A program made the translations under genes and the position numbers. Positions 3,850 to 49,150 of a stretch of 64,000 nt of DNA are shown here, one piece after another (positions within the stretch are counted from its first letter, which is position 1; each line of letters opens with the position of its first letter). The DNA is taken from positions 397,636 through 461,635 of the forward strand of contig JAYQSH010000005.1 of NCBI GenBank assembly GCA_038146805.1, given 5' to 3'. Under the pieces are notes generated by a model. It was given only the letters and a program-made list of their open reading frames with translations, had not been told where the DNA came from and searched no databases. This DNA is from a bacterium. GTDB taxonomy: Bacteria > Cyanobacteriota > Vampirovibrionia > LMEP-6097.

Positions 3850-3925
3850 GGGCCCGTAGCTTAGTTGGTAGAGCGCCTCGTTTGCACCGAGGAGGTCGAG
3901 TGTTCGAATCACTTCGGGTCCACCA
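3850..3925 (+). tRNA. tRNA-Ala (anticodon UGC), CCA encoded
   Basis: Cloverleaf read by eye. Acceptor GGGCCCG/CGGGTCC with G3:U70. Anticodon stem CCTCG/CGAGG, loop TTTGCAC. T-loop TTCGAAT. Terminal ACCA at 3922-3925. Confidence 0.93.
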
Positions 3926-4064
3926 TTTCATAAAAAATTACCAAGCTACCCTAGTGGTAGCTTTTTTTTGGGCATATATAACTTAAATGCAGGCTATTCA
4001 ACAACTTATTGCATGCCTCAACTTTATTACAGAAGATAAAGAACCTGAAACTGTACAAGAGAAA
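3920..4064. repeat. left copy of 145/147-bp direct repeat (DR1) bracketing accessory segment 1
   Basis: Near-identical to 8933-9079; differences are the T-run length and one A/G at 4055 vs 9070. Begins exactly at the CCACCA end of tRNA-Ala. Contains a terminator hairpin and the first 26 codons of the 9002 gene. Confidence 0.9.
3943..3969 (+). terminator. intrinsic terminator after tRNA-Ala
   Basis: 8-bp stem AAGCTACC/GGTAGCTT, 5-nt loop, then T-run. Confidence 0.75.
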
Positions 4065-4103
4065 TTGGAAATTGCCTATGTTTTCTTAATATTTTTTTCT
4101 TGA
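3987..4103 (+). pseudogene. truncated 5' duplicate of the gene at 9002..9406
   Basis: First 26 codons (MQAIQQLIACLNFITEDKEPETVQEK) identical to ORF 9002, then divergence and a stop after 38 codons. Confidence 0.8.
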
Positions 4104-4129
4104 ATTCAAGGTCTCTTATTTTGTATAAT
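4100..4129 (+). promoter_or_regulatory. near-consensus sigma70-type promoter
   Basis: TTGAAT (4100-4105), 18-nt spacer, TATAAT (4124-4129). ATG at 4139 lies only 9 nt downstream and no Shine-Dalgarno is visible. Confidence 0.5.
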
Positions 4130-4138
4130 GTAAGTATT

Positions 4139-4954
4139 ATGGAAGTTCCACCAAGTTCATCAAGGAGTATAACTATCCCAACAAGTCGCTATCAAATGTT
4201 AAAAGAAGCAGCTAAGCAGTTTTATAGAACAAAAGGCAGAGAAGAAGCTCATGACACAGAGAGAAGCCGTAGAGACGCTCAGACCTCACTAGAGATGAAT
4301 GTCAGCGATACTACAGAACAATCTTTAGGATTTTTGCTGAGAAATGTTAACCTAATTGCTGATGAATTGAACAGAGATTCAAATGGAGGTGTCAGGAATG
4401 ATAGACTTAACACGACTTTGCAGAAAACACTTACTGGAGTCGTGCAAGAAGAAGTTCTAAGAATGAGGGACAATTTGCAGCGTCAAGTTTATAAAGCTTT
4501 GGCCAGTGAACAATCTGTAGATGCTAGGGGAGAGGTTAATAAACAAATTCTTGAAAAACATAGAAGTGGAGCGCAAATTCTTGAACTTAATGCACCAATG
4601 AGTTCTCTTGATATAGAATTACAAAACGGTTATATTTTATCAAAAACCGACAACTTTGATAGACCAGTCTCGATATTTAGAAATCTTAAACTTGGCAATA
4701 ACGAGGCTTCTGTGGATTTTGATCTTTTAAGAGGAAGTGTAAAAGTTAATATAGATACAAGCGCTCTTGGTAATACAACAATAAAAGCATCAAATGTAGA
4801 TAATCTAGCAACTTACGAAATTGTGCATAATCCTGATGGAGATGGGGCTTTTTCAGTTGAAGCAAGTGAACATGAAAGTTTATTTGATCCAGCTAAAAGT
4901 TTCTTGGCAGATACGATGGAGATGGTTGAATTAGATTTACTAAAAGGTCACTAG
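4139..4954 (+). CDS. hypothetical protein (island cargo)
   Basis: Long ORF with no recognised motif. I prefer ATG 4139 over the ORF-track TTG 4100, which is the -35 box. May be the N-terminal part of a gene continued in ORF 5053..5541 after a frameshift. Confidence 0.5.
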   Translation: MEVPPSSSRSITIPTSRYQMLKEAAKQFYRTKGREEAHDTERSRRDAQTSLEMNVSDTTEQSLGFLLRNVNLIADELNRDSNGGVRNDRLNTTLQKTLTGVVQEEVLRMRDNLQRQVYKALASEQSVDARGEVNKQILEKHRSGAQILELNAPMSSLDIELQNGYILSKTDNFDRPVSIFRNLKLGNNEASVDFDLLRGSVKVNIDTSALGNTTIKASNVDNLATYEIVHNPDGDGAFSVEASEHESLFDPAKSFLADTMEMVELDLLKGH

Positions 4955-5052
4955 GAGCTTCAAGCCTTGAAGCAGGACAAGGCAAAGCTATAAGACAGTT
5001 TATTGCCCATGTCAAAGCAGCTCTAATCGATGATTCAACTGGGCAAATTGAT

Positions 5053-5541
5053 GTGAGCAAAGCGTCGGAACTAGCAAATGATCGTCGTTTTGTTGCTGTT
5101 GCAGAAACATTAGCTTTACATGCTTCTAAAGAAGGTGAAACAGATGGTAATAATCATAGTTTAGTTATAAATGATCTTAAGTATAACAATGGAGAACCTA
5201 TGGGTAGCCTAACAATTACTTCTAAAACAGCAATACGTGCAATTGCAGCAATAGGTGATAGTGTTCCGAACAAAGTTACGATTGAGTTTACACCTGCAAG
5301 TGAAGAAACAGAAGCAAGTTTGCATGGCAAAAAAGTAGACCTCGATCTTGAAAAAGATATAAAGTTATCTAAACATGCCACGCATTACGGAATCAATGGC
5401 TCTGGAGACGATTATGTATCAACAGCGCTTCACGAGGCTCCATCTTCTGATAAATTGCAACCTGTTAGTTTCAGAAAACCTGACCCATTCAAAATCAGTG
5501 TTAATTTTGTGACTGGTGAAGTATCGATAGATGGATTCTAG
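5053..5541 (+). CDS. hypothetical protein (possibly C-terminal part of a frameshifted gene, 3' end abutting IS30 element)
   Basis: Frame is open upstream to ~4929 and overlaps the end of ORF 4139..4954. The last codons (DGF-stop) lie at the IS30-like terminus. Confidence 0.45.
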   Translation: MSKASELANDRRFVAVAETLALHASKEGETDGNNHSLVINDLKYNNGEPMGSLTITSKTAIRAIAAIGDSVPNKVTIEFTPASEETEASLHGKKVDLDLEKDIKLSKHATHYGINGSGDDYVSTALHEAPSSDKLQPVSFRKPDPFKISVNFVTGEVSIDGF

Positions 5542-6435
5542 GAGCAAATGCAACTTTGCTTGATTTCTTCCTCAAAGACCTCAAAAGGTGTTTTGTAGCC
5601 TAGTCTTTTCTTGGTCTACTATTGATTAAATCAACGTACTTTTGAAGTTCTTCATTTGTAATTTTACTCAAATCTGCTCCTTTAGGAATAAATTCTCGTA
5701 AAAGTCCAATAGTATTTTTCACGTTCCTCTTTGCCATGGGCTGTAAGGTTTGGCAAAATATACTTTCATATCAAGACTACTTTCTATTTCTTGATGCTTT
5801 GCAAACTCAGTGCCATTGTCATAAGTTATTGAAAGACAAAGTTCGTCAGGTATTTCTTCAAAAAGCTCCTCAGTTGTTTCAAGAATTGATTTGGCCTTTT
5901 TTATTTTCCATTTTGGCTGCAAGAAGCAGTCAGACCTGCGTTCTACGTTAATTAAAATCTTAGGTGATTGTTTTGGGTCTCCAAGCATAGTATCTCCTTC
6001 CCAATGTCCGGGAACGCTCCTCTCATTGATTTCTTGAGGTCTTTCATCAATCGATCTCTTATTAATAATAAATTCTGGGCTGGATCTTTTCCTTCGATAT
6101 TTTTTACCTTTTCTCCTAAGCCTGAGTTTGACTAGGTCACAGCGTTTCTTGTAGAGCCATTGATATATAGTCTCATGACAAATTACTTCACCAGTTTCTT
6201 GTCTCCATCTACCCGCAATTTGATTGGGAGACCAGTGAAGTTCAATACAATCAATGATAAACTTCTCTAAAACACTGTCACTGACTATCCTTAGATGAAT
6301 ATTAGCTTCTCTTTTTCTTTCATAAGCAAGCTGCCAAGCTTTTTCAGCAGTGAAGCTTCCATCAACTGAATTGTTACTAATACACCTACTTACAACTGAT
6401 TTATTTCTACCAATAGTAATTCCAATTTCACTAAT

Positions 6436-7507
6436 ACAGGAGTTACGCGATTGCCTGACTTAGGTGTAACTGCACAGCTTCTCTAACTATTTCCCATTTT
6501 TGTTGATACCAACTTGTACCCTCTTTGAATCTAAAGTATTCCAGCTTGATCAGAGCTAAAAAAGCACAAAATATATGATTCTTTTGCGCTTGAGCTTTTC
6601 GCATATATGACTTTTCAAGTCCACAGACTTGTTTAAGTCCTCGGTGCATGGTCTCAATAAACCAGCGAGTTTTAGCATGACCAATAAAATTATCCCAGTC
6701 ATCTAAGTCCAAATCGTTAGTTATTAAGTACCTTATCTTCCCGTCTTTGAGAGTCCTCTTGCACACTAATATTGGACCAAAGTCTTTTAGCCAAACTTTC
6801 TTAACTTGTCTTTCTGCTAACTCTAGTTCGTCAACTCTAATCCAAACTCCTTTCACCTCACTAATCTTGCGATTTGATTTTATGTCAGCAACAAAGTTCC
6901 AGCCTTTAGCTTGTATTGCTTTTAAATTTTCCTTTGACACATACCAGCTATCCATCAGTACATAACTTGGCTTGAAACCTCGTTGCTCAGCGATATCTAA
7001 CATATCTCTAAAATGATCATTCTTGGTTTTATCATCACCTTCTTTGTTGTAGATTCGGTAGTCTACTGGTAATGCTATGCCATCTAGGTCAACCCACTGA
7101 GCATTTACGATACCGATACCTTGCTTTACGGCATGATGTTTGCCACTCCATTGCCACTTGGTTAGTTCAATTTTTTTAGCATATGGTTTTTCAAGCAAAG
7201 TATCATCAAATGCTAAGTAACCTTCATTGATATTAATTTTTTCTTCTACCTGAGACCAAAGGTCTTCTGGAGAAAATTCAGAATTATTCAGCCATCTATT
7301 TACTGAATCATGAGCCATTGTTTCATCTCGACTAACTTTTTCCAACTCACTACAAGAATACTGCTTTTGTGAAGCTATTAAAAACTCAACGTACAAATCT
7401 AAGCTACATTTTTGTTGTCTCATGTAGTCTTAGACGTATTTAATTCAAAAAAGTGGCCGTAATACTTATTAAATTACTGACAAATTAGGCAATCGCGTAA
7501 CTCCTGT
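6436..7507 (-). mobile_element. intact insertion sequence nested in the IS30 pseudogene
   Basis: Perfect 21-bp terminal inverted repeats ACAGGAGTTACGCGATTGCCT (6436-6456, reverse complement at 7487-7507). Flanking 3-bp direct repeat AAT (6433-6435 / 7508-7510). Single transposase ORF. Confidence 0.88.
6443..7423 (-). CDS. DDE-type transposase (IS4/IS701-like superfamily; family not resolved)
   Basis: 326-aa ORF filling the IR-bounded element. Acidic-residue context (LAFDDT, YVLMDSWY) resembles DDE transposases. Family assignment comes from memory only. Confidence 0.65.
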   Translation of the reverse strand: MRQQKCSLDLYVEFLIASQKQYSCSELEKVSRDETMAHDSVNRWLNNSEFSPEDLWSQVEEKININEGYLAFDDTLLEKPYAKKIELTKWQWSGKHHAVKQGIGIVNAQWVDLDGIALPVDYRIYNKEGDDKTKNDHFRDMLDIAEQRGFKPSYVLMDSWYVSKENLKAIQAKGWNFVADIKSNRKISEVKGVWIRVDELELAERQVKKVWLKDFGPILVCKRTLKDGKIRYLITNDLDLDDWDNFIGHAKTRWFIETMHRGLKQVCGLEKSYMRKAQAQKNHIFCAFLALIKLEYFRFKEGTSWYQQKWEIVREAVQLHLSQAIA

Positions 7508-7681
7508 AATAGTTAATCCTTGATCTAGCAATGTCTCAATTTTAACCATCTCTTCCCAAGTCAAATGACCCTTACTTTTGTCTGACATCTTTTTCTCCTG
7601 TATTTACTTACAAGGAAGAAAACATAGATTTGTTGCATTTCGGTTTAGAAAGAATCGTTTAAGTTGTAAACAGTTTGATAG

Positions 7682-8389
7682 ATTAGTGGGTCTGCCGAGA
7701 GGCAAAGTCCGAAACTTGGAGAAAGATTTGATTTAGATAATCCAAGGCAGAGTCCATACAAGGCTGCTCGATTTAGAGATGATGGAGGCGTTGTACTGCA
7801 TAAGAGTCAAACCTTCAGGGGACGAGATATAGAGGCACCAATTGGTGCTACTTTTGCTAAAGGACAATACCGTCAACTAAGCAGTAATAGTGAATTGAAT
7901 GATTTGCAAAGACAAACAAAGATTGACTTGAACTTTAAAGGGTTACTGAATGGTGATCCAGATGTTATTGATTTTGTTGATAACACATTAATTGATTCTG
8001 ATGAAGAGAGAGGGGATTTACATTCTAGGTATCTTGCGATGCGTGACTTTGTGTTAGAGGGCGAAAATTTTCCTAGTCGAAGAGCGGACATATTATGGAG
8101 ACAACTTTGCCTAATAAAACAATGTCAATCATCTTTTAAAGATGATGCAGAGTTAACTTTTTATAGAAAAATGTTGACGGCTGATCTTGCTCTTGAATAT
8201 TCAAAAGAGAGAAACGAGAGTAGACATAGTTGGTGGCTTCCACGTGGTTCTATGTATGATGTTATCAAATGGGATGAGAGCTTTAGGGAGGAATTGCAGC
8301 ACGAGTTTTTAGATGAGGCGCATCCTTTTCACTTTAATGCTGAAGAGAGGGATTTGGTAAGATCCCAAGTTTTTACTAACAGGCTTTAA
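7682..8389 (+). CDS. hypothetical protein, apparently 5'-truncated next to the IS30 end
   Basis: Frame open from 7682, just after stops at 7676/7679, with no nearby ATG. The ORF track starts at TTG 7895. No recognised domain. Confidence 0.4.
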   Translation: MSGSAERQSPKLGERFDLDNPRQSPYKAARFRDDGGVVLHKSQTFRGRDIEAPIGATFAKGQYRQLSSNSELNDLQRQTKIDLNFKGLLNGDPDVIDFVDNTLIDSDEERGDLHSRYLAMRDFVLEGENFPSRRADILWRQLCLIKQCQSSFKDDAELTFYRKMLTADLALEYSKERNESRHSWWLPRGSMYDVIKWDESFREELQHEFLDEAHPFHFNAEERDLVRSQVFTNRL

Positions 8390-8421
8390 TTTTTTTAAAT
8401 TCTTCCAAGTTTATGGTTTTT

Positions 8422-8568
8422 ATTTCAATGAGTAAGAAAGTGATTTCTGGTTGGTAGAAGACTATTTCTGTTAAGTAGAATTCAACTTCTAGCTTGCAGA
8501 TAGCTATTTCTTGAGGTAAGAAATTTATTTCTTCTAATGATATGCCCATTTCTTCAAAGTAGATAGGC
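8422..8568 (+). repeat. seven phased 21-bp direct repeats (iteron-like array)
   Basis: Units start at 8422, 8443, 8464, 8485, 8506, 8527 and 8548. Each begins A(T/C)TTC(T/A) and has a (G/T)NAGA-like core about 11 nt later. Confidence 0.8.
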
Positions 8569-8595
8569 TTAGACCCAATTAGGAAGCCAAAATCT

Positions 8596-8938
8596 CAAGT
8601 AGAGGCTGTCGCCTCGTCGCTGCCGCTCCTCGTTGACACCCTACTGTTTTTGTCCGCGAACCAAAGAAGCAAGAGCCAAACCTAGTGCGAGGTCACAACC
8701 GCTAAGTCTAGGCTCTGCGCGAGTCGCCGGTAACTACGCTCCTGAAGGCTTATCTGATGCTAGTCTAGAATGGTGGGAGACTTTGGCTACGGCTTGGACT
8801 GAGGTGGGCGGAGCGAAGCGGAGCCTACTCAAATATGTTCTTCTAAAGTGTTGGACGAGCTTGCGAGAACAACACTTCGGTGAATTTCAGCGCGGCGCCC
8901 CCACCTCGGGTTCGGACAGTTCCGTAAATCCCCCACCA
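8596..8938 (+). ncRNA. candidate structured non-coding RNA of unassigned family
   Basis: About 56% G+C by hand count, with AT-rich flanks. No credible ORF. At least five long-range complementary segment pairs, two of them crossing. Followed by an intrinsic terminator. 5' end uncertain (possibly ~8545). Confidence 0.55.
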
Positions 8939-9079
8939 TTTCATAAAAAATTACCAAGCTACCCTAGTGGTAGCTTTTTTTTTTGGGCATATATAACTTA
9001 AATGCAGGCTATTCAACAACTTATTGCATGCCTCAACTTTATTACAGAAGATAAAGAACCTGAAACTGTGCAAGAGAAA
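8933..9079. repeat. right copy of DR1
   Basis: See 3920-4064. Begins at the CCACCA that closes the GC-rich segment. Confidence 0.9.
8956..8984 (+). terminator. intrinsic terminator (duplicate of 3943-3969)
   Basis: Same AAGCTACC/GGTAGCTT hairpin followed by a T10 run. Confidence 0.75.
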
Positions 9080-9406
9080 GTTGACAATGATCCCTATGCA
9101 ACTGTTTTATCTATTGGAGCAAATGATCTTCGTGATAACAAAAAAGCTAGAGAATTTAACCAAGCTATTAAAGAAATTCATCAAGATCCTAATTTAGTAA
9201 CAAAAAAACAATTAGAGCAAATTACAAGCTTTACTAAAAAGCTATTAGAATTAAAACAAAAAGCACTCGACATGGCTCAAGAGTGCGAGGCTCCTTGGGT
9301 TCGAGAAGAACTTGATTGGATAAAAGAGAGTTATTTGGCTCTAGCTCAAGGCTATCAAAAGATTATTGAGGAATTGGAAAAACTAGTGAAATTAAAAACA
9401 AACTAA
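9002..9406 (+). CDS. hypothetical coiled-coil protein
   Basis: 134-aa ORF with no recognised motif. Its first 26 codons are duplicated at 3987. Confidence 0.55.
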   Translation: MQAIQQLIACLNFITEDKEPETVQEKVDNDPYATVLSIGANDLRDNKKAREFNQAIKEIHQDPNLVTKKQLEQITSFTKKLLELKQKALDMAQECEAPWVREELDWIKESYLALAQGYQKIIEELEKLVKLKTN

Positions 9407-30191: not shown

Positions 30192-30287
30192 TCAACCATT
30201 TTAACACTGCGAGCTGTGTCATTTTTATCTCACACTTAAGTAAAATCACTAAGTCTTTTGAGGAATCTTCAAGCTAAAGATAAAAAT

Positions 30288-30361
30288 GGGACAAAAATGA
30301 CACGGTCCGAAGTGTCTTAAAAATAGGACAAAAATAACACGGTCCGAAGTGTCTTATTAGA
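30288..30361 (-). repeat. two tandem 37-bp terminator-like hairpin units (minus orientation)
   Basis: GGGACAAAAATGACACGGTCCGAAGTGTCTTAAAAAT / AGGACAAAAATAACACGGTCCGAAGTGTCTTATTAGA, the reverse complement of the unit at 48699-48883. The second unit overlaps the stop of the ATPase gene. Confidence 0.85.
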
Positions 30362-37987: not shown

Positions 37988-38027
37988 AGCAAGGTTTTCA
38001 TTATCTTGACTTGCGCATATTGATGGA

Positions 38028-39069
38028 TTCCAATATCAATTGCAACTCTGCTTGATTTGAGCCTGAAATACCTCTAAAGGTGTTTTCCATTTTAGCCTTT
38101 TTCTGGGTCTAGTGTTTAAAAGATGAATATAGTGCTGTAGATCTTCCTCTGAAAGGGTATTTAGATCAGTGCCTTTTGGAATGAATTGCCTTAAAAGTCC
38201 TATGAGATTCTCAATACTTCCTTTTTGCCAAGGGCTGTATGGTTTAGCAAAATACACCGTCATTTTTGTCTTTTCTTCAATTTCTTTATGCTTTGCAAAC
38301 TCTGTTCCGTTATCGTAAGTAACTGAAATCCTAAGTTCTTCTGGTATCTCTTTAAAATATTCTTCAGTAGCTTTTAAAACTGATTCAGCTTTTTTGTTTG
38401 GTAACTTTTTAGCTAAGACAAGACCACTTTTTCTTTCTAGATTAAGAACAATACATTCTTTTTTACCATGAGCACCTATGATAGTGTCGCCTTCCCAGTG
38501 ACCAAATTCAAGCCTCTCATTGGCTTCTATCGGTCTTTCATCAATTGATCTTTTATCAACAATGAATTCTGGGGTGGTCCTTTTCTTACGATATTTTTTA
38601 CCTTTTCTTCTCAAGTAAATTTTTATTAAATCAGGTCTTTTGGTTTGTAGCCATGTATATATGGTTTGATGAGATAAAGCTTCGTTGCACTCTTCAGTCC
38701 ATATCCCAGCAATTTGCTCTGGAGAATGGTAAGAAGTAATTTTTTCAATAACGAAGTTTTCAAGTAAGCTTTCATCAATAATTCTAGGATGATGGTTTGC
38801 AGTTCTTTTTCTTTCATGCATTAACTGCCAAGCTTCTTCAGCAACAAAATCACCATCAACAGAGTTATTGTTTACGCATCTGTAGACAACTGATTTATTT
38901 CTTCCTATGACAACAGCTATTTCTGCTGGATTAAGACCTTGATTTAGCAATGTCTCAATTCTAACTACTTCTTCCCAGGTCAAGTGACCCTTATATTTAA
39001 ATGACATATCAGCCTCCTGTATTTACTACATTTCGGCTAAATCCTTAAAAGTTGCATTTCGGTTTGGAA
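38028..39069 (-). mobile_element. intact IS30-family insertion sequence
   Basis: Imperfect ~40-bp terminal inverted repeats: TTCCAATATCAATTGCAACTCTGCTTGATTTGAGCC at the left, reverse complement of TTCCAAACCGAAATGCAACTTTTAAGGATTTAGCC at the right. Single transposase ORF. Exact ends +/- a few bp. Confidence 0.85.
38036..39007 (-). CDS. IS30-family transposase
   Basis: 323 aa. N-terminal HTH (LTWEEVVRIETLLNQGLNPAEIA). DDE core (HWEGDT ... YDNGTEF ... YSPWQKGSIEN). Confidence 0.9.
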   Translation of the reverse strand: MSFKYKGHLTWEEVVRIETLLNQGLNPAEIAVVIGRNKSVVYRCVNNNSVDGDFVAEEAWQLMHERKRTANHHPRIIDESLLENFVIEKITSYHSPEQIAGIWTEECNEALSHQTIYTWLQTKRPDLIKIYLRRKGKKYRKKRTTPEFIVDKRSIDERPIEANERLEFGHWEGDTIIGAHGKKECIVLNLERKSGLVLAKKLPNKKAESVLKATEEYFKEIPEELRISVTYDNGTEFAKHKEIEEKTKMTVYFAKPYSPWQKGSIENLIGLLRQFIPKGTDLNTLSEEDLQHYIHLLNTRPRKRLKWKTPLEVFQAQIKQSCN

Positions 39070-48698: not shown

Positions 48699-48883
48699 AT
48701 TATTAGAACACTTCGGACCGTGTTCATTTTGTCTCATTATTAGGACACTTCGGACCGTGTTCATTTTGTCTCATTATTAGAACACTTCGGACCGTGTTCT
48801 TTTTGTCTCATTATTAGAACACTTCGGACCGTGTTCTTTTTGTCTCATTATTAGAACACTTCGGACCGTGTTGATTTTGTCTC
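48699..48883 (+). repeat. five tandem 37-bp terminator-like hairpin units
   Basis: Unit ATTATTAGAACACTTCGGACCGTGTTC(A/T)TTTTGTCTC. Unit boundaries at 48699, 48736, 48773, 48810 and 48847. No spacers. Confidence 0.92.
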
Positions 48884-49150
48884 ATGAATCAATAAATTAA
48901 CCTAGCTACTGTTAACAAATCCCAATAACTGCCCTACTCTACTGCCTCAAAGTCATGATTTACAAGCAGTAAACTGAAGCCTTTTTGGGGCGCTAGAAGT
49001 CCTTGTTCTCAAAATTTGTTAATGGGACTGATTCCAAACCCCATTTTGAATTTTAAAATACAGTGAAATGTTAAAATCACTAGCAAATGGGGTCAGAAAT
49101 CAGTCCCACAAACGACCTTACGCTTAGCTTGTTTCACTGCGTAAAACTCA

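Follow-up and report, generated by a model that had tools for sequence, protein, structure and literature searches.

A conserved array of seven helically phased 21-bp units beside a tRNA-Ala gene in a Vampirovibrionia genome, a candidate iteron-like DNA site

Plasmids and phages provide well-known examples of phased, iteron-like arrays. What would such an array do next to the tRNA gene of a chromosome, in an uncultured lineage that has been little studied, and with no recognizable initiator or partition gene? The question is raised by a row of seven 21-bp direct repeats in a Vampirovibrionia (Melainabacteria) genome, within the stretch of contig JAYQSH010000005.1 analyzed here (64,000 nucleotides, hereafter the window; Table 1). 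The same row is present in one distant relative, and we tentatively read it as a cis-acting DNA site of the segment that carries it.

The array and its copy in a distant relative

The seven units start at 8422, 8443, 8464, 8485, 8506, 8527 and 8548, as read in the sequence. Each unit reads as a first-pass annotation of the window had quoted it, and the palindrome AGAAATTTATTTCT, which that annotation had placed at 8519-8532 within the array, is present there. Of the two cores it had proposed, the second, GTAGA/TAAGA-like one is better written as G12-N-A14-G15-A16, in which A14 is the invariant position. The resulting unit consensus is A-Y-T-T-C-W-N5-G-N-A-G-A-W-N4, and each unit contains a partial dyad, TTCT-N7-AGAA. 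At a lag of 21 the base-match autocorrelation of 8422-8568 is 0.556, and it stays at 0.533 and 0.560 for lags 42 and 63, against ~0.27 for other lags. When all 147-bp stretches of the window were ranked for periodicity at lags 8-44, the array came second (z = 5.25), and the only stronger signal was a near-perfect 37-nt tandem repeat at ~48.7 kb. The units are mutually alike at just 45-70%, which explains why Tandem Repeats Finder did not report the array in the window. A repeat-finding search of the window recovered fragments of it without outlining the whole, and we therefore delineated the array by autocorrelation. The refined motif AYTTCWNNNNNGNAGA has four matches in the 64-kb window, all of them in the array (chance expectation 1.2), and neither this version nor that of the first-pass annotation occurs in the window outside the array.

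More than 120 loci came up when one genome per species was scanned for three units of phased TTCT-N7-AGA, almost all of them unrelated tandem or coding repeats. The one homologous locus is a contig (L102) from a metagenome-assembled genome (MAG) labelled Candidatus Melainabacteria. It has the creatininase, HD and TPR genes and the tRNA-Ala gene of the window's left flank, and since the flanking proteins are 57-83% identical (57% for the TPR proteins), it represents a distant relative in the same lineage. Window positions 8421-8651 are collinear with 991-1221 of this contig (232 aligned columns, E = 1.7e-22). The L102 array, at 992-1138, consists of exactly seven 21-bp units in the same phase, without a single indel between units over 147 bp in either genome. 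The first-pass annotation had named loss of the repeats in homologous loci, or a freely varying copy number, as the test of its proposal, and the array withstood it: L102 keeps the seven units, the phase and the cores.

What is kept within the units is highly uneven. Across the 14 units of the two genomes, A1, T3, C5 and A14 are invariant and Y2, T4, G12, G15 and A16 nearly so, and the ten core positions kept can be written as AYTTCW-N5-GNAGA. Between orthologous units, 58 of the 70 core positions are identical (83%) as opposed to 26 of the 77 non-core positions (34%), the latter being about random for the composition (Fisher p = 1.2e-9). The intergenic spacers nearby, between the TPR gene and the tRNA and between the HD and TPR genes, align between window and L102 with scores no better than those of shuffles. 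Judged from the two aligned copies, these differences show purifying selection on ten positions per unit, on the number of units and on their spacing, with the intervening bases free to change; by this evidence of selection, we regard the array as functional. The fourth unit has C at position 2 in both arrays, and this suggests that the individual units are orthologous between the genomes, without homogenization. Homology ends at 8651 in the window and at 1221 in L102. On the left, the limit of conservation is the first array unit, and the left neighbors of the two arrays differ. The L102 contig itself ends 990 bp past its array.

The exact two-turn spacing, held without indels in two deeply separated lineages, argues for binding on one face of duplex DNA, and we infer that the array is a row of putative protein-binding sites on double-stranded DNA. 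The two conserved patches of each unit, AYTTC (1-5) and GNAGA (12-16), lie ~11 bp apart and would therefore be placed in successive major grooves. The changes T to A at position 6 and G to T at position 15 are not compensated at the would-be pairing positions, and there is no fold signal; the conservation thus appears sequence-specific rather than pairing-specific. An array of hairpins in RNA or single-stranded DNA was accordingly rejected, as the folds were no better than those of shuffles.

Conservation runs straight on from the last unit into an 84-bp flank, and together the array and this flank form a 231-bp module. The invariant 16-mer AGTAGATAGGCTTAGA spans the boundary between the two. 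The flank, at ~50% GC, also holds a GGCTT...AAGCC inverted repeat and the series GTCGCCTC...TCGTTGACACCCT...GTTTTT. Two copies of the module are known, those of the window and L102, and no homologue was found in Joint Genome Institute (JGI) metagenomes, IMG/VR, plasmids or phages. The region 8400-8995 had no BLASTN match among plasmids or phages, three scans of IMG/VR returned chance 15-mers and acidic coding repeats only, and a 21-mer taken from the GC-rich DNA next to the module was not found in the metagenomes scanned. A metagenome match to the conserved 20-mer AGTAGATAGGCTTAGANCCA was dismissed as chance, its source being a GC-rich organism.

The pattern scan also brought up other arrays with a 21-bp period that are not homologous to that of the window, in a Pyrinomonadaceae MAG (L014, L082) and in Actinomyces-related MAGs (L085, L120); examples are ATTTCTTCACCGCAGATGTTG in 13 copies and palindromic TTCTATGNCATAGAA units.

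An insertion at tRNA-Ala and its GC-rich end

The module lies in a segment that four close relatives (L001-L004) lack. These relatives, found through homologues of a 134-aa open reading frame (ORF; 9002-9406), are 89-97% identical to the window in nucleotides around the locus, and each of the four has the empty site, an unbroken run of TPR gene, tRNA-Ala, terminator and 134-aa ORF. In the window, 4.9 kb of DNA is flanked by two direct-repeat copies of ~145 bp. Each copy takes in CCACCA, with which tRNA-Ala ends (6 nt), then the terminator and ~78 nt from the beginning of the 134-aa ORF; the extra, cut-off copy of this ORF start occupies 3989-4064. Self-BLAST of 8933-9098 against 3920-4080 gave 94.6% identity. 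One substitution is common to the two copies and missing from the relatives, and the duplication therefore arose in the lineage of the window. By its structure, this direct-repeat-flanked segment would be what is left by the single-crossover integration of a circular molecule. From left to right it contains an orphan gene cut off by an IS30-like element, an IS4-like insert, an orphan 164-aa ORF, the array and a GC-rich stretch.

In both genomes the order is array, 84-bp flank, ~300 bp of 55% GC and the exact 3' end of tRNA-Ala, with 365-417 bp from the module to that end. The L102 module and tRNA gene stand tail to tail; the window module is directed into the CCACCA and terminator of the duplicated copy. 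Because the module is found at the same tRNA-Ala in L102, is absent from the four close relatives and sits in a direct-repeat-flanked segment, we favor the view that the segment carrying it is variable and probably mobile. The mobile segment supposed by the first-pass annotation is to this extent borne out by the 4.9-kb insertion; the origin or partition function that it attached to the segment is not shown.

The same annotation had taken the GC-rich stretch for an RNA gene that the array might control. This premise proved weak, and an RNA gene in the GC-rich stretch is not established: the stretch has no Rfam family even at E up to 10, no tRNA or tmRNA according to ARAGORN, no similarity in the plasmid and phage collections, and a predicted fold that hardly differs from shuffles (z = -0.4 and -0.5 on the two strands). 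It has neither an ORF nor a terminator of its own. The stretch resembled an RNA gene on account of the terminator at 8956-8976, but this duplicates the one that stands directly after tRNA-Ala in the relatives, and the local annotation should be corrected so that the terminator belongs to the duplicated tRNA-Ala flank. Identification as tmRNA, RNase P RNA or signal recognition particle (SRP) RNA was rejected since nothing was found in Rfam or by ARAGORN, and a tRNA-derived 3' end was rejected since local alignment to tRNA-Ala was no better than shuffles. The equivalent segment of L102 (333 bp at 1222-1554) is equally GC-rich and cannot be aligned with that of the window. Its low fold scores (z = -4.6 and -4.95 on the two strands) show no strand preference, being due to Watson-Crick inverted repeats.

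Several inverted repeats were observed in these segments. Positions 1222-1554 of L102 contain perfect long ones, such as GTCTCTGGGCTGG / CCAGCCCAGAGAC and GGCGGTGCTGCC-GAAG-GCAGTGCCGCC, and the window equivalent has no such signal. In the window, the long-range repeat AATGGTGGG / CCCACCATT (8769-8783 and 8926-8940) overlaps the CCACCA boundary of the direct repeat, and AGCCAAAATCTC / GAGACTTTGGCT (8585-8596 and 8777-8788) ties the conserved flank to the variable part.

Table 1 Features of the array locus, in window coordinates
Feature	Position	Strand	Basis or remark
Left direct-repeat copy	3920..4064	+	contiguous with intact tRNA-Ala gene 3850-3925
Insertion of 4.9 kb	4065..8932	.	absent from L001-L004
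Orphan gene	4139..5529	+	no Pfam, PHROG or NCBIfam match
IS30-like element	5530..7652	-	interrupted by IS4-like element
DDE_Tnp_1 (IS4-like) element	6427-7516		within IS30-like element; 30-bp terminal inverted repeats
Orphan ORF, 164 aa	7895..8389	+	open frame from 7682; ends 32 bp before array
Array, seven contiguous 21-bp units	8422..8568	.	sequence, autocorrelation, window-wide rank, L102 copy, conservation over 14 units
Conserved flank	8569..8651	.	64/84 aligned columns identical to L102 1139-1221
GC-rich segment	8652..8932	.	55% GC vs 33.5% GC for the window
Right direct-repeat copy	8933..9079	+	self-BLAST, alignment with relatives, terminator scan

What the array may do

Our preferred reading, held tentatively and at somewhat less than an even chance, is that the array is an iteron-like cis-acting DNA site in which seven putative sites for one sequence-specific DNA-binding protein serve the maintenance or processing of the element; the module would then be the maintenance or processing site of its segment. 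Each 21-bp unit would offer its two contact patches either to a two-domain monomer, as in iteron-binding initiators, or to a dimer on TTCT-N7-AGAA. With units two helical turns apart, the bound proteins would all stand on one face of the helix, and could polymerize cooperatively into a nucleoprotein filament or wrap the DNA. Of the roles open to such a site, we rank replication or partition first: the array would be the iteron-type origin, or the partition site, of an episome brought in by Campbell-type recombination. Second comes an accessory role in integration or excision at the tRNA. Element maintenance is placed first because the module stands at the same tRNA in L102, is absent in the close relatives and lies inside the direct-repeat-flanked segment.

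In architecture, the array appears closest to plasmid iterons, especially those of R6K gamma, and to tandem-repeat centromeres. The standard layout of plasmid iterons has a period of 21-23 bp and 3-7 tandem copies, and several partition centromeres are built likewise; R6K gamma has seven 22-bp iterons, and P1 oriR has five at 21-bp spacing. Iteron origins are recognized by at least three phased direct repeats of 17-22 bp, and here there are seven of 21 bp, so that iteron-like is an apt description of the architecture. As in the iteron plasmids (R6K gamma, P1 oriR, F ori2, pSC101, RK2 oriV), the repeats run head to tail with a two-turn period, each unit has two patches about one turn apart, as expected for a two-domain initiator, and the segment around them looks like an integrated circle; the copy number of seven is that of the R6K gamma origin. 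The tandem-repeat centromeres (the 20-bp repeats of pSK41 parC, R1 parC and tubC of pBtoxis, read by ribbon-helix-helix or helix-turn-helix (HTH) adaptors) likewise have phased repeats on one DNA face, and the TAGA-type half-sites of the array recall ribbon-helix-helix operators such as the 21-bp P22 arc operator. Lambdoid origins, with at least four phased 18-19-bp dyad-symmetric iterons for the O protein, resemble the array in the partial dyad and the phasing of the units. Lambda iterons, however, lie inside the initiator gene and beside an AT-rich region, whereas the array has no intact ORF across it and no recognizable phage gene.

Several observations weigh against an origin or partition site, and the array cannot be counted in the iteron or centromere family, since neither a cognate protein gene nor the accessory sequence elements could be recognized. 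First, Pfam, PHROGs, NCBIfam and PDB sequence searches over all ORFs of the insertion recognized no initiator (Rep_3/RepA-type in the iteron plasmids), ParA/ParB-type or HTH protein in the insertion, and none was seen beside the L102 array; a novel initiator is nevertheless conceivable. Centromeres of the tandem-repeat kind normally lie just upstream of a par operon, but no parA, parM, tubZ or small adaptor gene adjoins the array, and a search for partition genes (ParA, ParM, TubZ, ParB-type) found none among the ORFs of 4-10.2 kb or in L102 1-8000. Second, no DnaA box lies near the array, the GC skew does not switch, and no AT-rich unwinding element is conserved: the 36 bp of AT-rich DNA that precede the array in the window are not kept in L102. 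Third, the units share ~10 of 21 positions, far below the iterons of characterized plasmids. Fourth, just two copies of the module are known, nothing alike was found in 72,556 plasmids, 50,697 phages or IMG/VR, and the array, unlike iterons of plasmids, is chromosomal, beside a tRNA and without sequence similarity in PLSDB. Fifth, no integrase, excisionase or other recombinase gene is recognizable, the other end of the segment carries no array, and the orientation of the module relative to tRNA-Ala is opposite in the two genomes, which is not easily fitted to a single site-specific integration mechanism. Finally, the ORFs beside the two arrays are unrelated, the one next to the L102 array resembles no ORF of the window, and the 164-aa ORF is not kept next to the L102 array; the binding protein would therefore be encoded elsewhere or on sequence outside our view. 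The origin or partition site of the first-pass annotation thus came through the conservation and copy-number tests without the Rep or Par protein, the DnaA box or the GC-skew switch being found.

Other identities for the array as a DNA site were considered and rejected. A chromosomal origin is contradicted by the lack of a GC-skew inflection and of a DnaA box. A transposon end (Tn7-like or Mu-like) does not fit, since there is no inverted motif cluster anywhere in 3900-9100, conservation runs 84 bp past the array, and the segment is bounded by 145-bp direct repeats rather than a short target duplication. TIGR arrays (TIGR-Tas) are similar in that short conserved and variable blocks alternate at an identity too low for CRISPR or tandem-repeat finders, but their units measure ~36 nt and their spacers 8-10 nt, and they come with box C/D motifs and a tas gene; the array has a 21-nt period and 5-nt variable blocks, with no box C/D motifs, no tas gene and no Nop-domain match.

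Count, spacing and ten putative contact bases per unit have been kept while the surroundings diverged beyond recognition, and the motif AYTTCW-N5-GNAGA, repeated seven times at 21-bp intervals, is defined precisely enough to serve as bait in a search for the binding protein. To our knowledge, no plasmid origins or integrative elements have been characterized in Melainabacteria, and the array offers a route into the replication, segregation or mobile-element biology of this lineage.

The rival that survives best is possible, if somewhat unlikely: the array would be an operator or upstream activating array through which a chromosomal transcription factor controls a boundary promoter that drives the conserved 84 nt and the GC-rich segment. 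The array, flank and GC-rich segment have the same order and orientation in both genomes, and the best-conserved 16 nt straddle the boundary and contain the TAnnnT hexamer TAGGCT. As conservation begins at the first unit and the left neighbors differ, the target would lie to the right, where a segment of 55% GC in two AT-rich genomes suggests function; a binding protein evidently not encoded beside the array would also fit a host regulator. However, no sigma-70-like promoter, the only promoter type looked for, stands at homologous positions in window and L102, and no downstream gene is defined. Beyond the 84 nt the downstream DNA cannot be aligned, it has no RNA family, its fold in the window is no better than that of shuffles, and its only terminator is the duplicated tRNA-Ala one. 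Seven phased sites would be unusually many for an operator, and the 64 kb contain no further sites. The operator for a downstream RNA proposed by the first-pass annotation is therefore not shown.

A further reading, which we consider rather unlikely, is that the 231-bp module and the adjoining ~300 bp, rich in GC and in inverted repeats, are the sole conserved part of an undescribed Melainabacteria (Vampirovibrionia) mobile element, or else the control region of a new, fast-evolving non-coding RNA. Such an element would be associated with tRNA-Ala, would have no conserved protein gene and would depend for its upkeep or movement on a trans-acting protein, of the host or a helper, that polymerizes on the array.

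Distinctly unlikely, in our view, is that the array acts as RNA. It would then lie at the 5' end of a long non-coding transcript, as a domain in which seven single-stranded AUUUC ... GNAGA motifs are displayed to an RNA-binding protein in a sponge-like manner. The array is contiguous with the conserved and GC-rich segments on the same strand in both genomes, and a weak -35/-10-like pair lies ~40 nt upstream of the L102 array; upstream of the array in the window, however, no promoter was found. The exact 21.0-nt spacing without indels speaks for helical phasing on duplex DNA, and known RNAs with repeated motifs have no such spacing. Neither a fold signal nor compensatory change was seen.

Improbable, with a slight chance, is a set of accessory recombination sites at tRNA-Ala, on which an excisionase, Cox- or Apl-type directionality factor or the arm-binding domains of an integrase would form a filament. 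Factors such as P2 Cox, 186 Apl and L5 Xis recognize 4-7 direct repeats in helical phase, and here too several phased repeats stand close to a tRNA-associated junction: the module of either genome occupies the tRNA-proximal edge of variable DNA, a few hundred bp from the exact tRNA-Ala 3' end. The sites of those factors, however, are 9-13 bp long with ~10.5-bp spacing, lie within ~150 bp of the crossover and have int/xis adjacent, none of which holds here: no integrase or excisionase gene is visible, and the distance to the crossover is larger than usual for arm sites. The differing orientation relative to the tRNA also speaks against this reading, and a repeat of 145 bp is more in keeping with homologous recombination than with a short recombinase core.

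Two readings carry almost no weight. The remnant of a minus-strand coding heptad repeat (xFYxxEI, from GAAAT and TTCTAC) is very improbable: a single minus-strand frame does stay open across most of the array in window and L102 alike, yielding FY..EI heptads, but it has a stop at a different place in each genome and all other frames are closed, conservation comes in 5-6-nt blocks with no codon periodicity, the amino-acid identity of the flank (~56%) is what 76-79% neutral nucleotide identity would give, and tBLASTx scores are similar in two different frames, indicating similarity at the DNA level. A neutral AT-rich minisatellite or chance periodicity, for which the degenerate units and the silence of Tandem Repeats Finder might be cited, is hardly credible given the window-wide periodicity score and a unit count, phase and cores that stay fixed in L102, where neighboring intergenic DNA is substitution-saturated.

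Neighboring genes and other repeats

The first gene of the insertion is an orphan that the IS30-like element cuts off. A second sample of the same strain (L006, a Logan contig of SRR26337512) is 99.9% identical to 4025-5563 and reads the window ORFs 4139-4954 and 5053-5541 as one 473-aa product. A single-base indel near 4954 separates the two, and the window carries either a frameshift mutation or a sequencing error there. A second IS30-like copy, 68-76% identical, was observed at 38019-39069.

The ORF nearest to the array had been given by the first-pass annotation as 7682-8389 and put forward as a possible Rep, ParB or winged-helix protein. The frame has no start codon before a TTG at 7895, from which a 164-aa product would be made, and this product is an orphan with no detectable relationship of that kind: it has no relative among Pfam, PHROG, NCBIfam or PDB sequences and no homologue in a word search of 5.8 billion proteins, and its AlphaFold model (mean pLDDT 37) is unusable. 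Exhaustive HMMER over 1.84 billion representatives gave one weak match, of residues 79-137 of frame 7682-8389 (E = 1.3e-5 for the full library), to a motif, D..DSH.NYLAKRD, that is repeated at least 4 times in a 1,036-aa metagenomic protein. That protein has faint matches to phage families (PHROG); what is left of a phage structural gene in the insertion is faintly suggested, and nothing about DNA binding follows from the match. A supposed helix-turn-helix of XRE type at 7653-7736 amounts to 27 residues just outside the IS30-like end and has no profile support. A search of genome contigs with the neighboring DsbA-like protein led to no relative, and exact look-ups of the window proteins gave no match.

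Elsewhere in the window, 37-nt tandem repeats occupy 48699-48885 (5.1 copies, 96% identity) and, in opposite orientation, 30281-30356 (2.1 copies). Each contains the hairpin GAACAC-TTCGGACC-GTGTTC. The repeats have no Rfam match; they are intergenic, after a SepF-like gene and before a DprA-like gene, and look like a dispersed intergenic repeat family.

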